DNA from: a virus
Lineage: Duplodnaviria; Heunggongvirae; Uroviricota; Caudoviricetes
Virus record (IMG/VR): IMGVR_UViG_3300021979_000001
Location: 290,948 to 354,947 of that record
Length of the DNA: 64,000 nucleotides
Direction: 5' to 3' (one strand)
Shown: positions 23,654 through 63,516 of the stretch, one piece after another
How positions within the stretch are numbered: position 1 is the stretch's first letter
Layout: every line of letters starts with the position of its first letter
Notes under the pieces: generated by a model
Databases searched by the model: none
What the model was told of the DNA's origin: nothing
What the model saw: only the letters and a program-made list of their open reading frames with translations
Translations under genes and position numbers: made by a program

Positions 23654-23730
23654 TGGCGATCCCTGCTGGATTCGAACCAGCAACCTACAGATTAGAAGTC
23701 TGTTGCTCTATCCAGTTGAGCTAAGGGACC
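23654..23730 (-). tRNA. tRNA-Arg(TCT)
   Basis: GGTCCCT/AGGGATC acceptor, ACAGA-CTTCTAA-TCTGT anticodon arm, TTCGAAT T-loop, CCA. Confidence 0.96.
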
Positions 23731-50246: not shown

Positions 50247-51350
50247 TTAATCAATTATTGATTTGATTGCATAGCCATGGCTATTGCCACCAGAAGCCGC
50301 AGACCAGTCAGTATCCGTTCCGATTTGGGTCCAGGATGATCTGTTACTATTACCATAACTACCTATTTGACCATCACCACCATAACCAATACCCCAAATG
50401 GTCCCATCCGACTTAATTGCATAGCCATGATTGCCGCCACTTGCAACAGATACCCAATTAGTATTTGTCCCGATTTTTGTCCACGATGACTTATTTCCAG
50501 AACCACCTATTTGACCATAAATATTATAACCAATCCCCCAAATGGTCCCATCCGACTTTATTGCATAGCCATGATATGTTCCACCAGAAGCCAATACCCA
50601 ATCTGTATCGGTTCCGATCTGTGTCCACGATGACTTATTCCCAGAACCACCTATTTGACCAAAATTATTGTAACCAATCCCCCAAATAGTGCCATCAGAC
50701 CTAATTGCATAACCATGAATGTTACCACTCGAAACAGATACCCAATTAGTATTCGTCCCGATTTTCGTCCAAAATGACTTATCACCCGAACCACCTATCT
50801 GCCCAACATTATTAGAACCAATTCCCCAAATAGTGCCATCAGACCTAATTGCATAACCATGACTATAACCACCCGAAACTGATGCCCAATTCTTATTCGT
50901 GCCAATTCGGGACCAGTATGATCTTCTACCAGTAAATCCAAGCTGACCAGAACCGCTATCACCAATACCCCAAATGGTCCCATCCGACCTAATTGCATAC
51001 CCATGATTGCCACCGGCAGAAACCGATGTCCAATCATTATCGGTTTCAATTTGTGTCCACGATGACTTATTCCCAGAACCGCCTATTTGACCATAATTAT
51101 TGTAACCAATGCCCCAAATAGTGCCATCCGGTTTAATTGCATAACCATTATTATTAGAACCACCGGAAATAGATGACCAATCATTATCAGTTCCTATTTG
51201 AGACCACAGTGTCTTATTCCCAGTCCCACCGATTTGACCATAATCATTAGAACCAATACCAAATACCGGGTGTTTTATTGTTTCAAAATTATTTTTTCCA
51301 ATGGTAATATTTAAAAAATGTTTCAGATTGTTTTTTACAACTACGCCCAT
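50247..51350 (-). CDS. RCC1-repeat beta-propeller protein
   Basis: about seven ~48-aa repeats W.SVSGG..HGYAI.SDGTIWGIG.N.YGQIG. Confidence 0.9.
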   Translation of the reverse strand: MGVVVKNNLKHFLNITIGKNNFETIKHPVFGIGSNDYGQIGGTGNKTLWSQIGTDNDWSSISGGSNNNGYAIKPDGTIWGIGYNNYGQIGGSGNKSSWTQIETDNDWTSVSAGGNHGYAIRSDGTIWGIGDSGSGQLGFTGRRSYWSRIGTNKNWASVSGGYSHGYAIRSDGTIWGIGSNNVGQIGGSGDKSFWTKIGTNTNWVSVSSGNIHGYAIRSDGTIWGIGYNNFGQIGGSGNKSSWTQIGTDTDWVLASGGTYHGYAIKSDGTIWGIGYNIYGQIGGSGNKSSWTKIGTNTNWVSVASGGNHGYAIKSDGTIWGIGYGGDGQIGSYGNSNRSSWTQIGTDTDWSAASGGNSHGYAIKSIID

Positions 51351-53633: not shown

Positions 53634-54623
53634 TTATATCATCCCAATCAGTTGTTTTACATCAGCCAATGTTTTATTGGCGATAGTTGCGGCCCGCTCC
53701 GAACCATGGGCTAAAATCTGGGAAACCCATTCCTGATCATTATCCAGACGTTTTTTATTAGCCTGGATTGGGGCAAGATGTTCAACTAATGAATCGGTTA
53801 GGTCTTTTTTAAAAGTGGAGAACATTTTCCCACTGTATTCGACTAACACGGTTTCCATATTGGTGCCGGTGATAGCAGCATACATTGCAACCAGATTTTT
53901 CGCTTCTGGGCGTCCTTCCAGGCCATCCAGGTGACTTGGTATCGGGTGCGCGTCGGTCTTCGCCTTGCGGATTTTAACAGCAATAGTATCGGCATCGTCA
54001 AACAGGTTAATACGAGACCGGTCATTAGGTGCAGATTTTGACATTTTCTTGGTGCCATCGATTAATGATTTCACCGAGGTCATATTTCCTAATACCGGGT
54101 TTGGTAATTTGAAATAGGATGTCTGGTATTCATTATTGAACCGAGACACAATATCTCGGGTCAATTCGATGTGCTGGGTCTGGTCGCTACCAACCGGAAC
54201 GTGTGTTGCATTGTAAAGTAAAATATCCGCTGCCATCAAACTAGGATAAGCATAAAGGCCAAGCGATGCATTTTCACGATGTTTACCCGATTTGTCTTTG
54301 AATTGCGTCATACGGTTCAACCAACCGATACGGGCAACACAGTTAAATATCCACGCCAGTTCGGCATGAGCGGAAACCTGGCTTTGGTTAAACAGAATGT
54401 GTTTTACCGGATCAATGCCCGACGCAATCAGGGTGGTTGCAAGTTCCCGAATATTTGTGCGCAATTCGGATGGTTTCTGCGATATGGTAATAGCATGCAT
54501 ATCCACTACGCAGAAGATACACTCGTTATTACTTTGTAAGTCAATCCAGTTACGGATTGCACCAAGATAATTACCAAGATGAATATTGCCGGTAGGCTGA
54601 ATACCGGAAAAAATACGGTTCAT
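53634..54623 (-). CDS. trpS: tryptophanyl-tRNA synthetase
   Basis: [15 protein letters not shown] (HIGH), [33 protein letters not shown]. Confidence 0.96.
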
Positions 54624-57148: not shown

Positions 57149-57733
57149 TTATCGTAACTGTTGTCTACTGTTTTTTTTCAGCCCTGGCTTAATCCAATGC
57201 AGTTCTGGATGTTCACCGGTAAAGTTTTTATCCCATACTATCCACACATAGGTGGTTGTCCCACCACCTTTAACTTGACTACCGGCTGGATACAAAGACA
57301 ACCGTTCAGAAAACAGATAAACTCGCGATGGTGGTATTACTGAATAAACAGTATTATACCGCGTGATGCTTTCCAAAAATGATGCCCTAACCAAAATACA
57401 AACTTTTTGAGTAGCCAATTGAATCGCATGTGTCAAAATATCATTTGCAATGTTATATGGCGGATTTGTTATAATATTATCGTATGGTGCATTTATGTCG
57501 AAAAAATCGACAACATCACCGTAACCCCAATCATTTATATCCGATGATATTACTTTACAATTAGTTTCTTTCAAAACTTTGGACATATCGCCCGTTCCGC
57601 AACACGGTTCGAGGATAGTTCCGGTAAAATTTTCGTTTTGAAGTAATGCCAATGTTCCCCATCTTGGGGTGGGATAAAAATCTGGCCCGGACGCATCAAC
57701 CAGGCGTTTGTTCGTTATCATACAAATACTCAT
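57149..57733 (-). CDS. phage N6-adenine DNA methyltransferase-like protein
   Basis: DFYPTP, ILEPCCGTG (motif I), IITNPPY (motif IV), Y.W.VW. Confidence 0.88.
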   Translation of the reverse strand: MSICMITNKRLVDASGPDFYPTPRWGTLALLQNENFTGTILEPCCGTGDMSKVLKETNCKVISSDINDWGYGDVVDFFDINAPYDNIITNPPYNIANDILTHAIQLATQKVCILVRASFLESITRYNTVYSVIPPSRVYLFSERLSLYPAGSQVKGGGTTTYVWIVWDKNFTGEHPELHWIKPGLKKNSRQQLR

Positions 57734-58515: not shown

Positions 58516-59661
58516 TTAATTATTTGCCAACTTTAATTTTGCAAGAACCATTTGCGCATGGTCACGAAAAAGCAGAACTACCTTTTGTATATTATGATTA
58601 TTATGTTTAATGGATGAACATAGTATAATCATATCTACTTTTTTTAATTCATATGGAAAGGTTGGTTTTCGACAAAACGTCGTATATTGTCGAGCATAAA
58701 TACCAAATTTCGATGAAATTATTTTAAAATCAAAATCGAACAGGTCTGTTATATAGTCGCGAGTTTTATCGGCAAGGATTGGTGTGATCATTATTGGAAC
58801 ATTAATGTTATGTCCTATGCTATTGCCAAATCGTTCATAATTAATAAATGGCGACATATCTACATCGTAACCAAAATCGGTGTCGCACCGGTATGGAAAA
58901 TCATTATTAACTTCATCCAACGATGCTATGGGCAGCAATTCACGCTTTAATATATCGTATACATGCTGATGCTGACAAAAAAGTTTGCCTTCTGTAAATA
59001 CCACACGTTCATTCTGTATTCCATATTCTTGCATAATTGCACGAATATGGGCCTTCCCGGTGATCATGCTGTATCGGGCATCAAAAACAGGAATATTTAA
59101 GAAACCATAAAAATCCGATAAATCGGAAACGCGCATAAATTCAGGGTTATGGCGATCAATACAAATAAGCCCAGGTGTGTTTTTCAAATCCTTAACATCA
59201 TTGTCCCGAGGGAAACAATCATAGTTTAAGAACTTGGTGTTATAAACCTTGATGCCAGACGGAATAACGTTTGGATCATTAATAAAAGCCCATTGAACGT
59301 TGTCATCTGACTGGGAACAATACCACATCAGAAATGAAATAATAGAATTGTTACTATCATTAAATGGTATATTATAAAATTCGGTATCTTTAATGTTGGT
59401 ATGCATAGATAGCATATCAACTATAAAGGAAACATTTCTTGTCGAATATTTAGATTGAATTTCAATTTTGGTTTTTTCCCGCGTTTTGACATACAGATCG
59501 TTAATATCAGGATGATTACAAGCAATATGGATTACACCACATAAAGTTGGGTCCATCTGCCCATGATCGGAAAAATGATAAATGAATGGCAACTGACTAC
59601 GAACAGTATCGTAAGCATGATATTTGACTGGGTAAGGATGTTTTCGATTGTTGAACATCAA
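58516..59661 (-). CDS. expanded paralog family protein (TNIK.T.F/F.MW subgroup)
   Basis: 381 aa; TNIKDTEF, FLMWYCSQ, RVSDLSDFY; ends LLFRDHAQMVLAKL. Confidence 0.8.
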   Translation of the reverse strand: MMFNNRKHPYPVKYHAYDTVRSQLPFIYHFSDHGQMDPTLCGVIHIACNHPDINDLYVKTREKTKIEIQSKYSTRNVSFIVDMLSMHTNIKDTEFYNIPFNDSNNSIISFLMWYCSQSDDNVQWAFINDPNVIPSGIKVYNTKFLNYDCFPRDNDVKDLKNTPGLICIDRHNPEFMRVSDLSDFYGFLNIPVFDARYSMITGKAHIRAIMQEYGIQNERVVFTEGKLFCQHQHVYDILKRELLPIASLDEVNNDFPYRCDTDFGYDVDMSPFINYERFGNSIGHNINVPIMITPILADKTRDYITDLFDFDFKIISSKFGIYARQYTTFCRKPTFPYELKKVDMIILCSSIKHNNHNIQKVVLLFRDHAQMVLAKLKLANN

Positions 59662-59798
59662 TTCATATCCACGATATTTATATGCTGTTTAAAGGCCATT
59701 TAACGCATCATAGAGGCGGTCTAAGTTAACAGGCAGCGTTACCCCAAATTATTATTAACGGCTAATACCTGGCCGCAAAACACCCCCTACGCTGAACA

Positions 59799-60935
59799 TT
59801 AATCTGAATTAAAATCAACATGTAGTTTAGCAAGGACCAGTTGAGATTCATCTTTAAACAATAAATAACGCATCCCTGCCTTAATTAAATACATTTCGAT
59901 CATGTCCACCGATTGTAATTGGTGTAAAAACACCGGTTTTTTATAAAATACGGTTAGACCTCGTGATATTGGATCATCAATAGGAATAAATAGTGTGTTC
60001 AACCCAAGATTATTTTGCAAAAGCGAGTGATATTTAATGTCTCCCGATTCAAGCAAATATGGACTGGGTGCCAACTTCCCAAACGTTGCAAACGTTTCAC
60101 TTTGTGAAATCGCAATGATTTCTGGATAGTCATACTGATTATAGTTAGTCCGATATTTGATATGATATGGAAATAGTGCCGATACATCGTCTACTGAACT
60201 TATCGGTGTTAGTGTTTTCTTGAAAAAATCATAAACATGCTTTTTTTCACAGTATAATTCTAATCCTGTAAATACAAGACGTTCGTTGATCATATCATTG
60301 TCACGCAGAAATTTTGCAATCATGTGTGCCGCAGTTGACAGATTGTCTTCGGCATCAATCCAGGGCAGGGAAATGCTATTATAAAATTCCGACAAATCCG
60401 ACACCCGCTTGCGAGGGTTATGTTTTGGATCAATAACGACGAACCCAGGAGTATCGGCATAATCTTGAATGTCATTATTATGCTTATATTCGGAATCGGA
60501 ATAAAATAAAAAATAAGATATGTCAATCTTACCAGTGATATTATCGTCAATATTATCCGGGTATTTGTTACATATATACCACTGTAGGTTATCAAATGAT
60601 TGTGCGCATAGCCACATCATAAATGGAATACAATTGTCAGTTGCGATACCATTTAATGAATCACCGTGAAATACGGTCTGTTTTATATTCGTCGTTAGTG
60701 ATAATACATCTTTGTTAAACATATGGAAATGGAACGATGTTGATTGGATTTCAACCTTTGTTTTTATCTTTGACTGCACATACAGGTTATGTAGGTTATG
60801 GTGATTGCACACTATATACACGGTTTCGATCATAGAATTACCGTAAACTTTGTATATATACTTGGATAATGCGGAATCATCATACGGGCTGTAAATAGCC
60901 GGGTATGGCGTTGTCTTGTTATTATATTTGATCAT
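59799..60935 (-). CDS. expanded paralog family protein
   Basis: 378 aa; close paralog of 58516; ends LLFKDESQLVLAKL. Confidence 0.8.
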   Translation of the reverse strand: MIKYNNKTTPYPAIYSPYDDSALSKYIYKVYGNSMIETVYIVCNHHNLHNLYVQSKIKTKVEIQSTSFHFHMFNKDVLSLTTNIKQTVFHGDSLNGIATDNCIPFMMWLCAQSFDNLQWYICNKYPDNIDDNITGKIDISYFLFYSDSEYKHNNDIQDYADTPGFVVIDPKHNPRKRVSDLSEFYNSISLPWIDAEDNLSTAAHMIAKFLRDNDMINERLVFTGLELYCEKKHVYDFFKKTLTPISSVDDVSALFPYHIKYRTNYNQYDYPEIIAISQSETFATFGKLAPSPYLLESGDIKYHSLLQNNLGLNTLFIPIDDPISRGLTVFYKKPVFLHQLQSVDMIEMYLIKAGMRYLLFKDESQLVLAKLHVDFNSD

Positions 60936-61501: not shown

Positions 61502-61663
61502 AAAACCACCCTGTGCATATCTGTTTGGATTTGATTAGTTAATCATAAAATGGTCCGTGATGGAAATGTTTTTTTCAAAATCAATTTGGTAACGCGGGAT
61601 CATAACAACAAAAGCCATAATAACAGAATGATTATGTTTCACTCTGTCATTATGGCTTTTTAA

Positions 61664-61738
61664 TGGCTCCGGCAGTAGGATTCGAACCTACGGCCCCCTG
61701 ATTAACAGTCAGGTGTTCTACCGCTGAACTATACCGGA
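61664..61738 (-). tRNA. tRNA-Asn(GTT)
   Basis: TCCGGTA/TGCCGGA acceptor, CCTGA-CTGTTAA-TCAGG arm, G73, CCA. Confidence 0.96.
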
Positions 61739-61744
61739 ATATAA

Positions 61745-61821
61745 TGGTGGCGGGAGTAGGATTTGAACCTACGATCTCCGGGATATGAACCCGACGAGTT
61801 ACCAAACTTCTCCATCCCGCA
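61745..61821 (-). tRNA. initiator tRNA-fMet(CAT)
   Basis: 1:72 mismatch (T:C), three G-C pairs in the anticodon stem TCGGG-TTCATAT-CCCGG, CCA. Confidence 0.92.
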
Positions 61822-61827
61822 TCAATA

Positions 61828-62710
61828 AGAAACCCGTGAGATTACCGGGGTTTATAATGGGCCTTTCCGAACATTACCGATAACTTGCGATTATCGTTCT
61901 TTCGTTATCCATGCCACGTGATTGCAGCATATCCCATTAGTGTCGCCTTTTTTAGTGAGTGGCAGTTCTCACATCATTGAATTGTCCTCGACCGATTATC
62001 CCATACCGACACTTATAAATGCCGTTCGCGTTGCTACACGCTATACCAGATTACTGATCAATAGTCCTTAGATTTGCGATCTTTAGACTACCCATTTTCT
62101 CATAGAGAATGGGATTAGACACCTTTCCAATTCAACTGGGACAGTCTTTTGCGTTTTTTGCGGAATCGAACCGCCGAAGCAGATTAGAAGTCTGTTGCCA
62201 ACCATTGGCTATTGAAAAAATCACTGTCATGCGCTGTCCCAAGTTGCTTCATCACCGCTTTACAGTGACAAAATACAACGCATCACGTTCCGTTCGTCTT
62301 GCTAGACTACTAAGACTATATTTTGGATATTGTCAGTTCCCCACCAAAATCCTCATATATGCAAACCGCTCTTAGGTGCAACCCTTCGAACTTATTTTGC
62401 TATCCATTATGTTTCATGATGAACGATTTAGCGTTGTATAGATGATCTGCTACAATCATTTAGCAATCAGCATACGCCATCTTGCCTATCTTTTCAGCCA
62501 TACATTCGTTTTCTCACTAGACACCACGTTAATGATGTCACCTTGTGGGCAACACTGGACCTGCATAGATGTGCCAAAATAAATTGGTGAAAGTGCGTGA
62601 CTACTCTCTTTCAGTCTATTACTAGACTATATACTAATGACGCTATGCCGCCATAGAGAACCACACACAAGGAATGTCATAGACAAACCATACATGGTGG
62701 CTCAAAACTT
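61828..62710 (-). ncRNA. GOLLD-like giant structured ncRNA (boundaries approximate)
   Basis: ~0.9 kb ORF-free; many short helices (GTCT-AGCA-AGAC, CGTGT-AGCA-ACGCG, CGATAA..GCAA..TTATCG, GACATCA/TGGTGTC); 3' hairpin loop GTAATCTCA can pair with upstream TGAGA; abuts tRNA genes; family assignment from recalled features only. Confidence 0.65.
62151..62224 (-). tRNA. degenerate tRNA-Arg(TCT)-like element embedded in the large ncRNA
   Basis: D arm GCCAATGGTTGGC, anticodon arm CAGA-CTTCTAA-TCTG, T arm GCGG-TTCGATT-CCGC, T6/A6 acceptor-like stem, no CCA. Confidence 0.65.
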
Positions 62711-62827
62711 TTTAGTCTGAATGCTTCAAAAGGCACAGTTGCTATACCAGGGGGGACATTGGCGATTACGGGGGGAGTAAATCGCCGCAACTGTGCCCAT
62801 TGAAACACTCAAACAGTTCATATTCAA

Positions 62828-62839
62828 TTGTCAAAGAAC
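62828..62839 (-). promoter_or_regulatory. rrn-type boxA antitermination element
   Basis: GTTCTTTGACAA on the minus strand, ~45 nt after the predicted start of transcription. Confidence 0.6.
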
Positions 62840-62891: not shown

Positions 62892-62920
62892 GTTATAGCC
62901 TGCTACGAAACTACTGTCAA
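62892..62920 (-). promoter_or_regulatory. near-consensus sigma70 promoter for the ncRNA/tRNA operon
   Basis: TTGACA-17 nt-TATAAC with an A-rich UP-like tract upstream. Confidence 0.8.
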
Positions 62921-62958: not shown

Positions 62959-63516
62959 TTATTCAAGAACACTGATCACCGGCACCGCATCATATGCTAG
63001 CTGTAACAAACAAATGTCAGTCATCCGTTCACACGATAGATAAAAATGATTGCGTTTGTGCCCATAAAAAACATATCGGCCAAGCAACTGCTCATTCAAC
63101 ACACTGATAACCATCTTGTGTTTTTTTGGGGCAACGATAGGTTTGGGTAAATTGCTATTATCCATGATATTAGTATATTTTATACTCACGTTATATAATT
63201 TGCCATTCTCATTTTTATCCCAACCTGGGAAATTTTGATTGACAAGGGCGGTATATATGTAACTTGTCGGGTATATGGTTTGCTCAAATACATTTGGTAA
63301 CCACAATTGATTATCATCCGCTACCGTAGGTGATGTATTATCAATCACGGTTTGTGATTTAGTGCTATAAATAAACGTCGTGTCAAATGGCAACCATAGC
63401 TGATCTGGATCGTATACGTTATCTAATATAATAATACCGCCTACAGAGGTAATATCATAAATGCGACGGGATTTTCCGTCCAATTTGATCAATGAAATTG
63501 TGGTTTTCATTGCCAT
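62959..63516 (-). CDS. hypothetical protein (paralog of 63507)
   Basis: N.P.WD...NG.LY...I and GRY motifs shared with 63507; two QLWLP motifs. Confidence 0.65.
   Translation of the reverse strand: MAMKTTISLIKLDGKSRRIYDITSVGGIIILDNVYDPDQLWLPFDTTFIYSTKSQTVIDNTSPTVADDNQLWLPNVFEQTIYPTSYIYTALVNQNFPGWDKNENGKLYNVSIKYTNIMDNSNLPKPIVAPKKHKMVISVLNEQLLGRYVFYGHKRNHFYLSCERMTDICLLQLAYDAVPVISVLE

Follow-up and report, generated by a model that had tools for sequence, protein, structure and literature searches.

The window, i.e. the whole stretch of 64,000 nucleotides that was analysed, is part of a 457-kb virus record, a jumbo phage with Gp23 capsid and terminase. Its minus strand carries a GOLLD RNA followed by the genes of two tRNAs. 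In the sequence, one promoter and one terminator bracket all three:

62892-62920, minus strand: sigma-70-type promoter predicted for GOLLD and the two tRNAs (perfect -35 hexamer, 17-nt spacer, -10 at 5/6)
62829-62839, minus strand: putative boxA-like antitermination motif
62287-62700, minus strand: GOLLD 5' domain (nhmmer profile; 5' end uncertain, about 62700-62800)
61833-62286, minus strand: GOLLD 3' conserved part including the linker (Rfam RF02032 match)
61745-61821, minus strand: tRNA-Met(CAT), CCA encoded, 11 nt downstream of GOLLD (ARAGORN)
61664-61738, minus strand: tRNA-Asn(GTT), CCA encoded (ARAGORN)
61612-61658, minus strand: intrinsic terminator-like hairpin closing the operon (sequence prediction)

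The sigma-70-type pattern (62920-62892) is the sole match of that pattern in the genome and would drive transcription of the operon; a similar promoter precedes GOLLD in Sinorhizobium phage Phosso. The boxA-like motif we take to be of the kind found in rRNA/tRNA operon leaders. All 20 free tRNAs of the phage encode CCA, and the genome also contains a permuted (two-piece) tmRNA (G000:C1:160209-160554). The best cultured match was Phosso, with 33% for the protein adjoining the capsid gene. This match and the permuted tmRNA suggest an alphaproteobacterial host.

The window further encodes a class Ib aminoacyl-tRNA synthetase (53634-54623, minus strand; PF00579, Trp/Tyr type, E 3e-72) and a long run of ORFs, about 20 in all and 320-380 aa each (about 24080-52486 and 58516-60935), possibly an expanded paralog array. 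One ORF of the run (50247-51350) encodes an RCC1-like repeat protein, and four others gave no Pfam match. A DNA methyltransferase-like ORF (57149-57733, minus strand) matches only positions 200-389 of phrog_799 (458 positions) and may be a partial gene. The 62-nt stretch 63367-63428 has an 87% identical copy just past the window end (L397:1454-1515), which suggests that neighbouring genes were duplicated. In the tRNA cluster of the genome lies a structured non-tRNA element (G000:C1:360330-360590, minus strand), whose 7-bp stem ends in a T loop (360437-360447). The genome has two other T-loop motifs that stand alone, at positions 190561 and 445009.

A divergent GOLLD RNA with a tRNA-like insert in its linker

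The RNA matched the Rfam family RF02032 with 177.9 bits (cut-off 150, E 2.4e-48, model positions 1-416). The initial annotation, which had assigned a tRNA-like element at 62151-62224 to a giant RNA, was correct in this respect: the element lies in the linker of GOLLD. A nhmmer profile of other GOLLD 5' domains matched at 62450-62268 (E 5.5e-12) and 62654-62603 (E 2.3e-5). By the profile matches to 62654 the RNA is at least 820 nt long (700-900 nt expected), with a 5' domain that is only partly alignable. The scaffold is divergent, being at most 56% identical to the 39 other GOLLDs compared and sitting on the longest branch of the tree. BLAST of this GOLLD against phages and plasmids gave no match, flanking or scaffold proteins used as bait for related loci found no close relatives, and a scan of genome contigs gave chance matches only.

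Within the RNA the insert occupies the variable J13/15 linker, with P13 on one side and the 3' strand of the pseudoknot P14 on the other. Helix names follow the numbering of the GOLLD papers, and their assignment to strands of the window was made here:

62243-62279, minus strand: helix P13, upper part (62279-62276 with 62246-62243; 100% paired, 3 of 4 pairs compensatory)
62234-62240, minus strand: pseudoknot P14, 5' strand (7/7 pairs in 41/41 homologs)
62138-62144, minus strand: pseudoknot P14, 3' strand (pairs with 62240-62234)
62130-62136, minus strand: helix P15, 5' strand (pairs with 61982-61976; 100% paired with compensatory changes; Rfam alignment)

Five of the seven P14 pairs (62240-62234 with 62144-62138) showed compensatory changes. 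Over P13, P14 and P15 together 100% of 587 cells were paired, and 11 of 18 pairs had changed on both sides. The insert had been described as held by a 12-bp helix (62234-62246 with 62133-62144). Seven of these base pairs stand, namely P14, while the strands of the other five belong to P13 and P15. The 5-bp extension was intact in only 33 of 41 homologs; it was broken in L025, the Caulobacter phages and the roseophages, where P13 holds. It failed where P13 or P15 vary, and it is excluded because P15 takes its strand. That the element is "displayed on a stem" has also become doubtful, because the 7-bp pseudoknot P14 makes up this stem and the linker lies inside the cage in the cryo-EM structure of the env-38 GOLLD, a 14-mer (PMC12286853).

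Fold of the insert

Read on the minus strand, 62224-62151 has the layout of a cloverleaf:

62151-62224, minus strand: tRNA-like insert, four-way junction (ARAGORN 95% threshold, Rfam tRNA-clan match, partition function)
62215-62224, minus strand: closing helix, 5' side; 3 bp (p about 0.9), a bulged A, then U6 with A6 (p 0.44-0.59)
62197-62209, minus strand: D arm; 4-bp stem, 5-nt loop with G18 G19; A20 and A21 absent
62180-62194, minus strand: anticodon arm; 4 bp and 7-nt loop, anticodon UCU at 62188-62186; 27-43 is a mismatch
62160-62174, minus strand: T arm; 4-bp stem, canonical 7-nt T loop
62151-62159, minus strand: A6 run and CGC; conserved GOLLD A-run before P14, without acceptor 3' strand and without CCA

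Scoring with ARAGORN, as the initial annotation had proposed, gave no call for 62151-62224 at default settings and a "possible pseudogene tRNA-Arg(tct)" at the 95% threshold; the Rfam tRNA clan matched the same interval with E 0.0096. These matches bear out the cloverleaf. The insert fails a functional-tRNA test, with no Rfam tRNA score above 29 bits and no default ARAGORN call. In the partition function the isolated insert folded into all three arms (core pairs p 0.86-0.99), and an alternative UUCG hairpin across the anticodon and T stems, with a probability of 0.01, was rejected; folding z-scores did not separate inserts from shuffles. L397 and L400, two independent assemblies, agree at every position of the insert sequence (100% identity), which rules out an assembly error as its origin. 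As first described, a GG-containing D loop and the T loop are kept, U6 (62220-62215) and A6 (62159-62154) are present, and CCA is absent from the insert. The view of A6 as a remodelled acceptor strand did not hold, since A6 is the A-run of the family.

Identity of the anticodon arm with tRNA-Arg(UCU)

An identity of 19 nt between the insert and a tRNA gene of the phage had been noted (62180-62198 versus 23688-23706). It is exact and the sole such match in the 457-kb genome (E 2e-4). The gene compared is:

23654-23730, minus strand: intact tRNA-Arg(TCT) sharing the 19-nt arm (ARAGORN and sequence match)

Under a model of the family, the chance that the insert matches the whole arm of any tRNA of its own phage is only about 0.001, so that the arm descends from a real tRNA-Arg(UCU). 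The same 19-mer occurs at at least 120 viral loci, none of them within a GOLLD linker, and the 45 of these that were listed read as free-standing tRNA-Arg genes. Since the arm is common to phage tRNA-Arg(UCU) genes, it need not derive from the gene of this phage. The T arm of the insert is similar to that of the phage tRNA-Arg(UCU). The D arm differs from that of the phage's own gene, and with an arm so widespread this gene is not demonstrable as the certain donor. Family-wide copying of own tRNAs was rejected: the longest match between other inserts and the anticodon arms of their own phages was 6-14 nt. L260 has both a UCU insert and its own tRNA-Arg(UCU), yet the insert holds no copy of that arm. 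None of the Phosso tRNAs shares the arm.

The insert across GOLLD RNAs

Pattern scans and BLAST yielded 41 homologous inserts, 33 of them distinct metagenomic ones (window copy included) and 8 from cultured phages; matches of a first T-loop pattern were tRNA-plus-terminator and were discarded. An insert was present in 34 of the 39 GOLLDs matched by an insert-independent pattern, a share that may be too high because the pattern was designed from insert-bearing sequences. The other five form a single clade with a short linker. GOLLDs without a tRNA-like insert are L002, L004, L005, L006 and L008 (linker 45-46 nt) and L003 (53 nt); the short A+T-rich linker of L002-L006 and L008 may fold as a simple hairpin.

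Mean stem pairing in the inserts was 3.9 of 4 for the D, 4.97 of 5 for the anticodon and 4.8 of 5 for the T stem, with more than one kind of base pair at each position. Acceptor pairs 4-7 were formed in 30-31 of 33 inserts and pairs 1-3 in 15-17 of 33, and the T-acceptor stack is shortened to about 9 bp across the family. The tertiary pair 15:48 was complementary in 30 of 33, as A-U, U-A or G-C, which 0 of 20000 shuffles reached (relatedness uncorrected). The family norm of acceptor pairs 4-7 plus a complementary 15:48 was derived here and is not a published criterion. G18 G19, T54-C56 and A58 were kept in essentially all inserts while the anticodon varied; as most loci were found with a pattern that contained the T-loop motif, the conservation of this motif, unlike the covariation, is partly built in. 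No CCA was found in any of the 41 inserts. Because the arms and 15:48 covary, only the inner acceptor pairs persist and CCA is missing throughout, we read the family domain as a selected, L-shaped tRNA mimic without an end for maturation and charging. Neutral decay across relatives, which the initial annotation had named as the contrary outcome, is thus not what the comparison gives. Its claim of a non-chargeable element is supported by the window copy, which lacks the acceptor 3' strand, the discriminator and CCA.

At default settings ARAGORN called 26 of the 32 other metagenomic inserts tRNA, and several inserts are annotated as tRNA genes in GenBank. GOLLD occurs in the Caulobacter phages Magneto (L270:6091-6162), phiCbK (L271:6091-6163) and BL57 (L272:1091-1162), with 18 records; it is unannotated in the three records opened, whose inserts GenBank lists as tRNA-Lys or tRNA-Gly. 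Phosso likewise has an unannotated GOLLD (L268:1501-1969; PV764938 33533-34001; 186.6 bits) with a UCU-loop insert. Inserts that lack CCA and are bordered by GOLLD P13/P14 lie at L273:7079-7154, L275:6977-7050, L274:7032-7103 and L276:6965-7042. These four loci comprise the "tRNA-Arg" of roseophages DSS3_MAL1 and MD18, one "tRNA-Leu" of Mesorhizobium phage Cp1R7A-A1, whose insert loop has 7 nt, and an element of Erythrobacter phage L02.

The window copy as the most reduced form

The window insert is the shortest of 33. It differs from all the others by a mismatch in the anticodon stem, a D loop of 5 nt and a variable loop of 3 nt. Its arms are all shorter than is usual in the family, and the T stem apparently lacks one whole pair, on both strands, relative to tRNA-Arg. 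Two of seven acceptor pairs remain and none is contiguous (family mean 4.3), 15:48 is broken (U15, C48) and A21 is lost. G18 G19 and the T-loop motif are retained, and the 19-nt arm carries no substitution. From the T stem to the conserved GCAAAG motif before P14 there are 6 nt, compared to 11-20 in relatives. Because only these 6 nt part the two, the acceptor 3' strand must have been deleted, with A6 being the family A-run. U6 may be compensatory and close the junction anew, or it may reflect drift. The "selective retention" of anticodon arm and elbow proposed earlier is therefore true of the family, whereas the window copy has lost features that the family keeps. A search for strain variants of the phage found only identical copies.

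Variation of the anticodon loop

The initial annotation had asked whether the anticodon varies across homologous RNAs, and it does. The 34 seven-base loops held 12 kinds of anticodon (UCU in 8, UUU in 7, GUU in 6, UCC in 3, and others); the remaining 7 of 41 loops have 8-9 nt. U33, U36, A37 and A38 are conserved across the insert loops, with a bias to U36-A37-A38. U36 was found in 26 of 34 loops versus 35% of free tRNAs, uncorrected for relatedness or A+T content. About a quarter of the loops are non-canonical: 9 of 34 have a purine at position 32 and 5 of 34 lack U33, to which the 7 loops of 8-9 nt are added.

The scaffolds of phiCbK, Magneto and BL57 are at least 99% identical and hold three different anticodon loops. 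For a Caulobacter phage pair, chosen post hoc, three events in 7 nt gave p of 7e-6 to 0.014, depending on the assumed neutral rate. L209 and L210 have an identical GOLLD scaffold with different inserts, the rest of their loci being about 83% identical; this pattern suggests that insert or scaffold moves as a module.

UCU occurs in 6 of 12 rows of a weakly supported branch (83/59) that holds the window RNA and the alphaproteobacterial phages, with Phosso and the roseophages. Recognition of tRNA-Arg by ArgRS depends on A20, C35 and U/G36 (PMC9976931). The insert has C35 and U36 and carries U at position 20; A20 is absent in 4 of 5 metagenomic UCU inserts, the window copy among them. Judged from these sequences, the arginine identity is a local state and not conserved. 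Since the 41 inserts comprise 12 anticodons and also 7 loops of 8-9 nt, the arginine-specific mimic proposed at first is not supported. Neither is synthetase binding, as the missing A20 is the main bacterial determinant (PMC9976931).

Discussion

We are highly confident that the element represents, in this phage, the tRNA-like domain found in the J13/15 linker of GOLLD RNAs; it is a real, divergent and reduced member of a published insert type. The explanation that we favour as a whole, a linker domain acting as tethered bait, has in our view a somewhat better than even chance of being right. P13, P14 and P15 clamp the linker that carries the insert. Cleavage by RNase P depends on a distance measured along the T-acceptor stack, starting at the elbow, and a tRNA-like end is required by RNase Z and the CCA enzyme (PMC4810234). 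An insert without a full acceptor helix and CCA is therefore unlikely to be cleanly excised and charged. It would remain tethered within the GOLLD cage, one per subunit. For the pseudo-tRNA in the GOLLD of Mycobacterium aubagnense no separate RNA was detectable (PMC6582537). The tethered insert may then present host enzymes that act on tRNA, anticodon nucleases in particular, with a tRNA elbow and an anticodon loop, and would be accessible while the RNA is monomeric or the cage open; this role of a bait, taken by itself, we propose tentatively, at somewhat less than even chance. Mutation and the exchange of modules would retune the loop; in this phage the arm would have come from a real tRNA-Arg(UCU). 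The window copy would later have lost its 3' acceptor strand, with the junction re-closed by U6:A6.

A bait is favoured by the anticodon arm, which is better preserved than any other stem, by the conservation of U33, U36, A37 and A38, and by the rapid change of the loop and the swapping of modules. The nucleases PrrC, colicin E5 and colicin D act on Lys(UUU), Asn(GUU) and Arg tRNAs. The U36-A37-A38 bias and the fast loop change in the Caulobacter phages are compatible with such a decoy. The non-canonical loops fit nuclease evasion or relaxed constraint as well as they fit a bait. Against it speak the GOLLDs that have no insert and the loss of 15:48 and A21 in the window copy. The position of the linker inside the cage (PMC12286853) counts against it too, since the bait would be hidden. 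A bolder version, which we hold to be improbable, would make GOLLD an anti-defence particle. Its 10-14 tethered, non-chargeable tRNA shapes per cage would titrate or sense anticodon nucleases through exchangeable loops, the true tRNA-Arg(UCU) arm being loaded against an arginine-directed tRNase.

The domain may alternatively serve by its shape only, as an elbow or compact folding unit inside the cage with an anticodon loop free to drift. Variants are a docking site for RNase P, the L1 stalk or an elbow protein, or a cut site parting the 5' and 3' domains. Taken jointly we regard these as unlikely, though they survive best among the alternatives. They would explain the near-invariant G18 G19, T54-C56 and A58 beside a varying anticodon. 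RNase P, the L1 stalk and T-boxes all recognise tRNA elbows (PMC4810234), and GOLLD has been reported to pull down ribosomes and to have separate domains in its 5' and 3' regions (PMC12286853). U33, U36, A37 and A38 and the best-paired anticodon stem, however, exceed the needs of an elbow handle. RNase P gauges the T-acceptor stack (PMC4810234), which is short in this family, and the T-loop conservation was favoured by the search pattern.

Less probable still is a decaying relic, i.e. a tRNA-Arg(UCU)-derived module under relaxed selection that is tolerated in a variable linker of this phage. The short insert with its lost acceptor pairs, broken 15:48, mismatched anticodon stem and small D and variable loops would be expected of such a relic, as would the divergence of the host GOLLD and the existence of GOLLDs without insert. 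Against decay, the three arms still fold and the junction has a new closure in U6:A6. One whole pair, on both strands, appears to be missing from the T stem, and the 19-nt arm is free of substitutions.

An arginine-specific decoy or an ArgRS-binding module, as initially framed, we consider very unlikely: UCU is the commonest anticodon and makes up half of the branch that includes Phosso, but the diversity of anticodons, the A20 missing from most metagenomic UCU inserts and the failure of other inserts, L260 included, to copy the anticodon arms of their own phages all disagree with it. A stored tRNA precursor that is excised, CCA-added and arginine-charged (the "inhibited storage" idea, PMC12990946) would agree with the default ARAGORN calls and GenBank annotations of other inserts and with a Phosso set of free tRNAs in which none has this UCU loop sequence, yet it can practically be dismissed, as the window copy lacks acceptor 3' strand, discriminator, CCA and A20, the phage already has an intact tRNA-Arg(UCU), and no insert encodes CCA although free phage tRNAs do.

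Comparison with known systems

Cage structures of GOLLD have been solved, and the embedded tRNA is the main clue to its function. The idea of tRNAs in the GOLLD linker is not new (PMC12286853, PMC12990946, PMC6582537). The quantified family pattern and the loop switch in Caulobacter phages were not found in the available GOLLD literature, though part of the family pattern may already be published. The comparison argues for a selected tRNA shape that stays attached and uncharged, against the idea of a stored tRNA. As phiCbK, Magneto and BL57 differ mainly in the anticodon loop, they provide natural test pairs in cultured phages, and several GenBank "tRNA genes" of these phages are GOLLD inserts. 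The window copy, unsurprising to a specialist, is a minimal natural variant showing what can be lost.

With GOLLD (RF02032) the window RNA shares a full-model score above cut-off, covarying P13, P14 and P15, adjoining phage tRNA genes and the linker site; it differs in its divergent scaffold and its partly alignable 5' domain. The S. agalactiae GOLLD is a 12-mer (reviewed in PMC12990946). In the env-38 GOLLD the linker is short and disordered (nt 497-538), too short for a tRNA (PMC12286853), whereas the window linker holds the insert. tRNAs embedded in J13/15 are known as the Mycolicibacterium tRNA-Phe (PMC12990946) and the M. aubagnense pseudo-tRNA (PMC6582537). The window copy has the same site, a tRNA-like fold and a predicted cage-inward pointing, and no separate tRNA is expected. 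It differs by its UCU arm identical to a widespread phage tRNA-Arg arm, its deleted 3' acceptor strand and the U6:A6 closure; the D loop, T stem and variable loop are also smaller.

Phage tRNA-Arg(UCU) genes have the same 19-nt anticodon arm and a similar T arm; the insert differs from them by another D arm, by lacking acceptor stem, discriminator, CCA and A20, and by being covalently inside a giant RNA. Anti-nuclease phage tRNAs, described in work that names PrrC, colicin E5 and colicin D, are likewise tRNA-shaped phage RNAs with a fast-changing anticodon loop, an analogy in way of working only. They are chargeable replacements that evade cleavage (PMC10264068), whereas the window insert cannot replace a tRNA. 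Viral tRNA-like structures of the TYMV type also mimic the tRNA elbow within a larger RNA; they are 3'-terminal and aminoacylated (PMC4810234), whereas the window insert is internal and without CCA.
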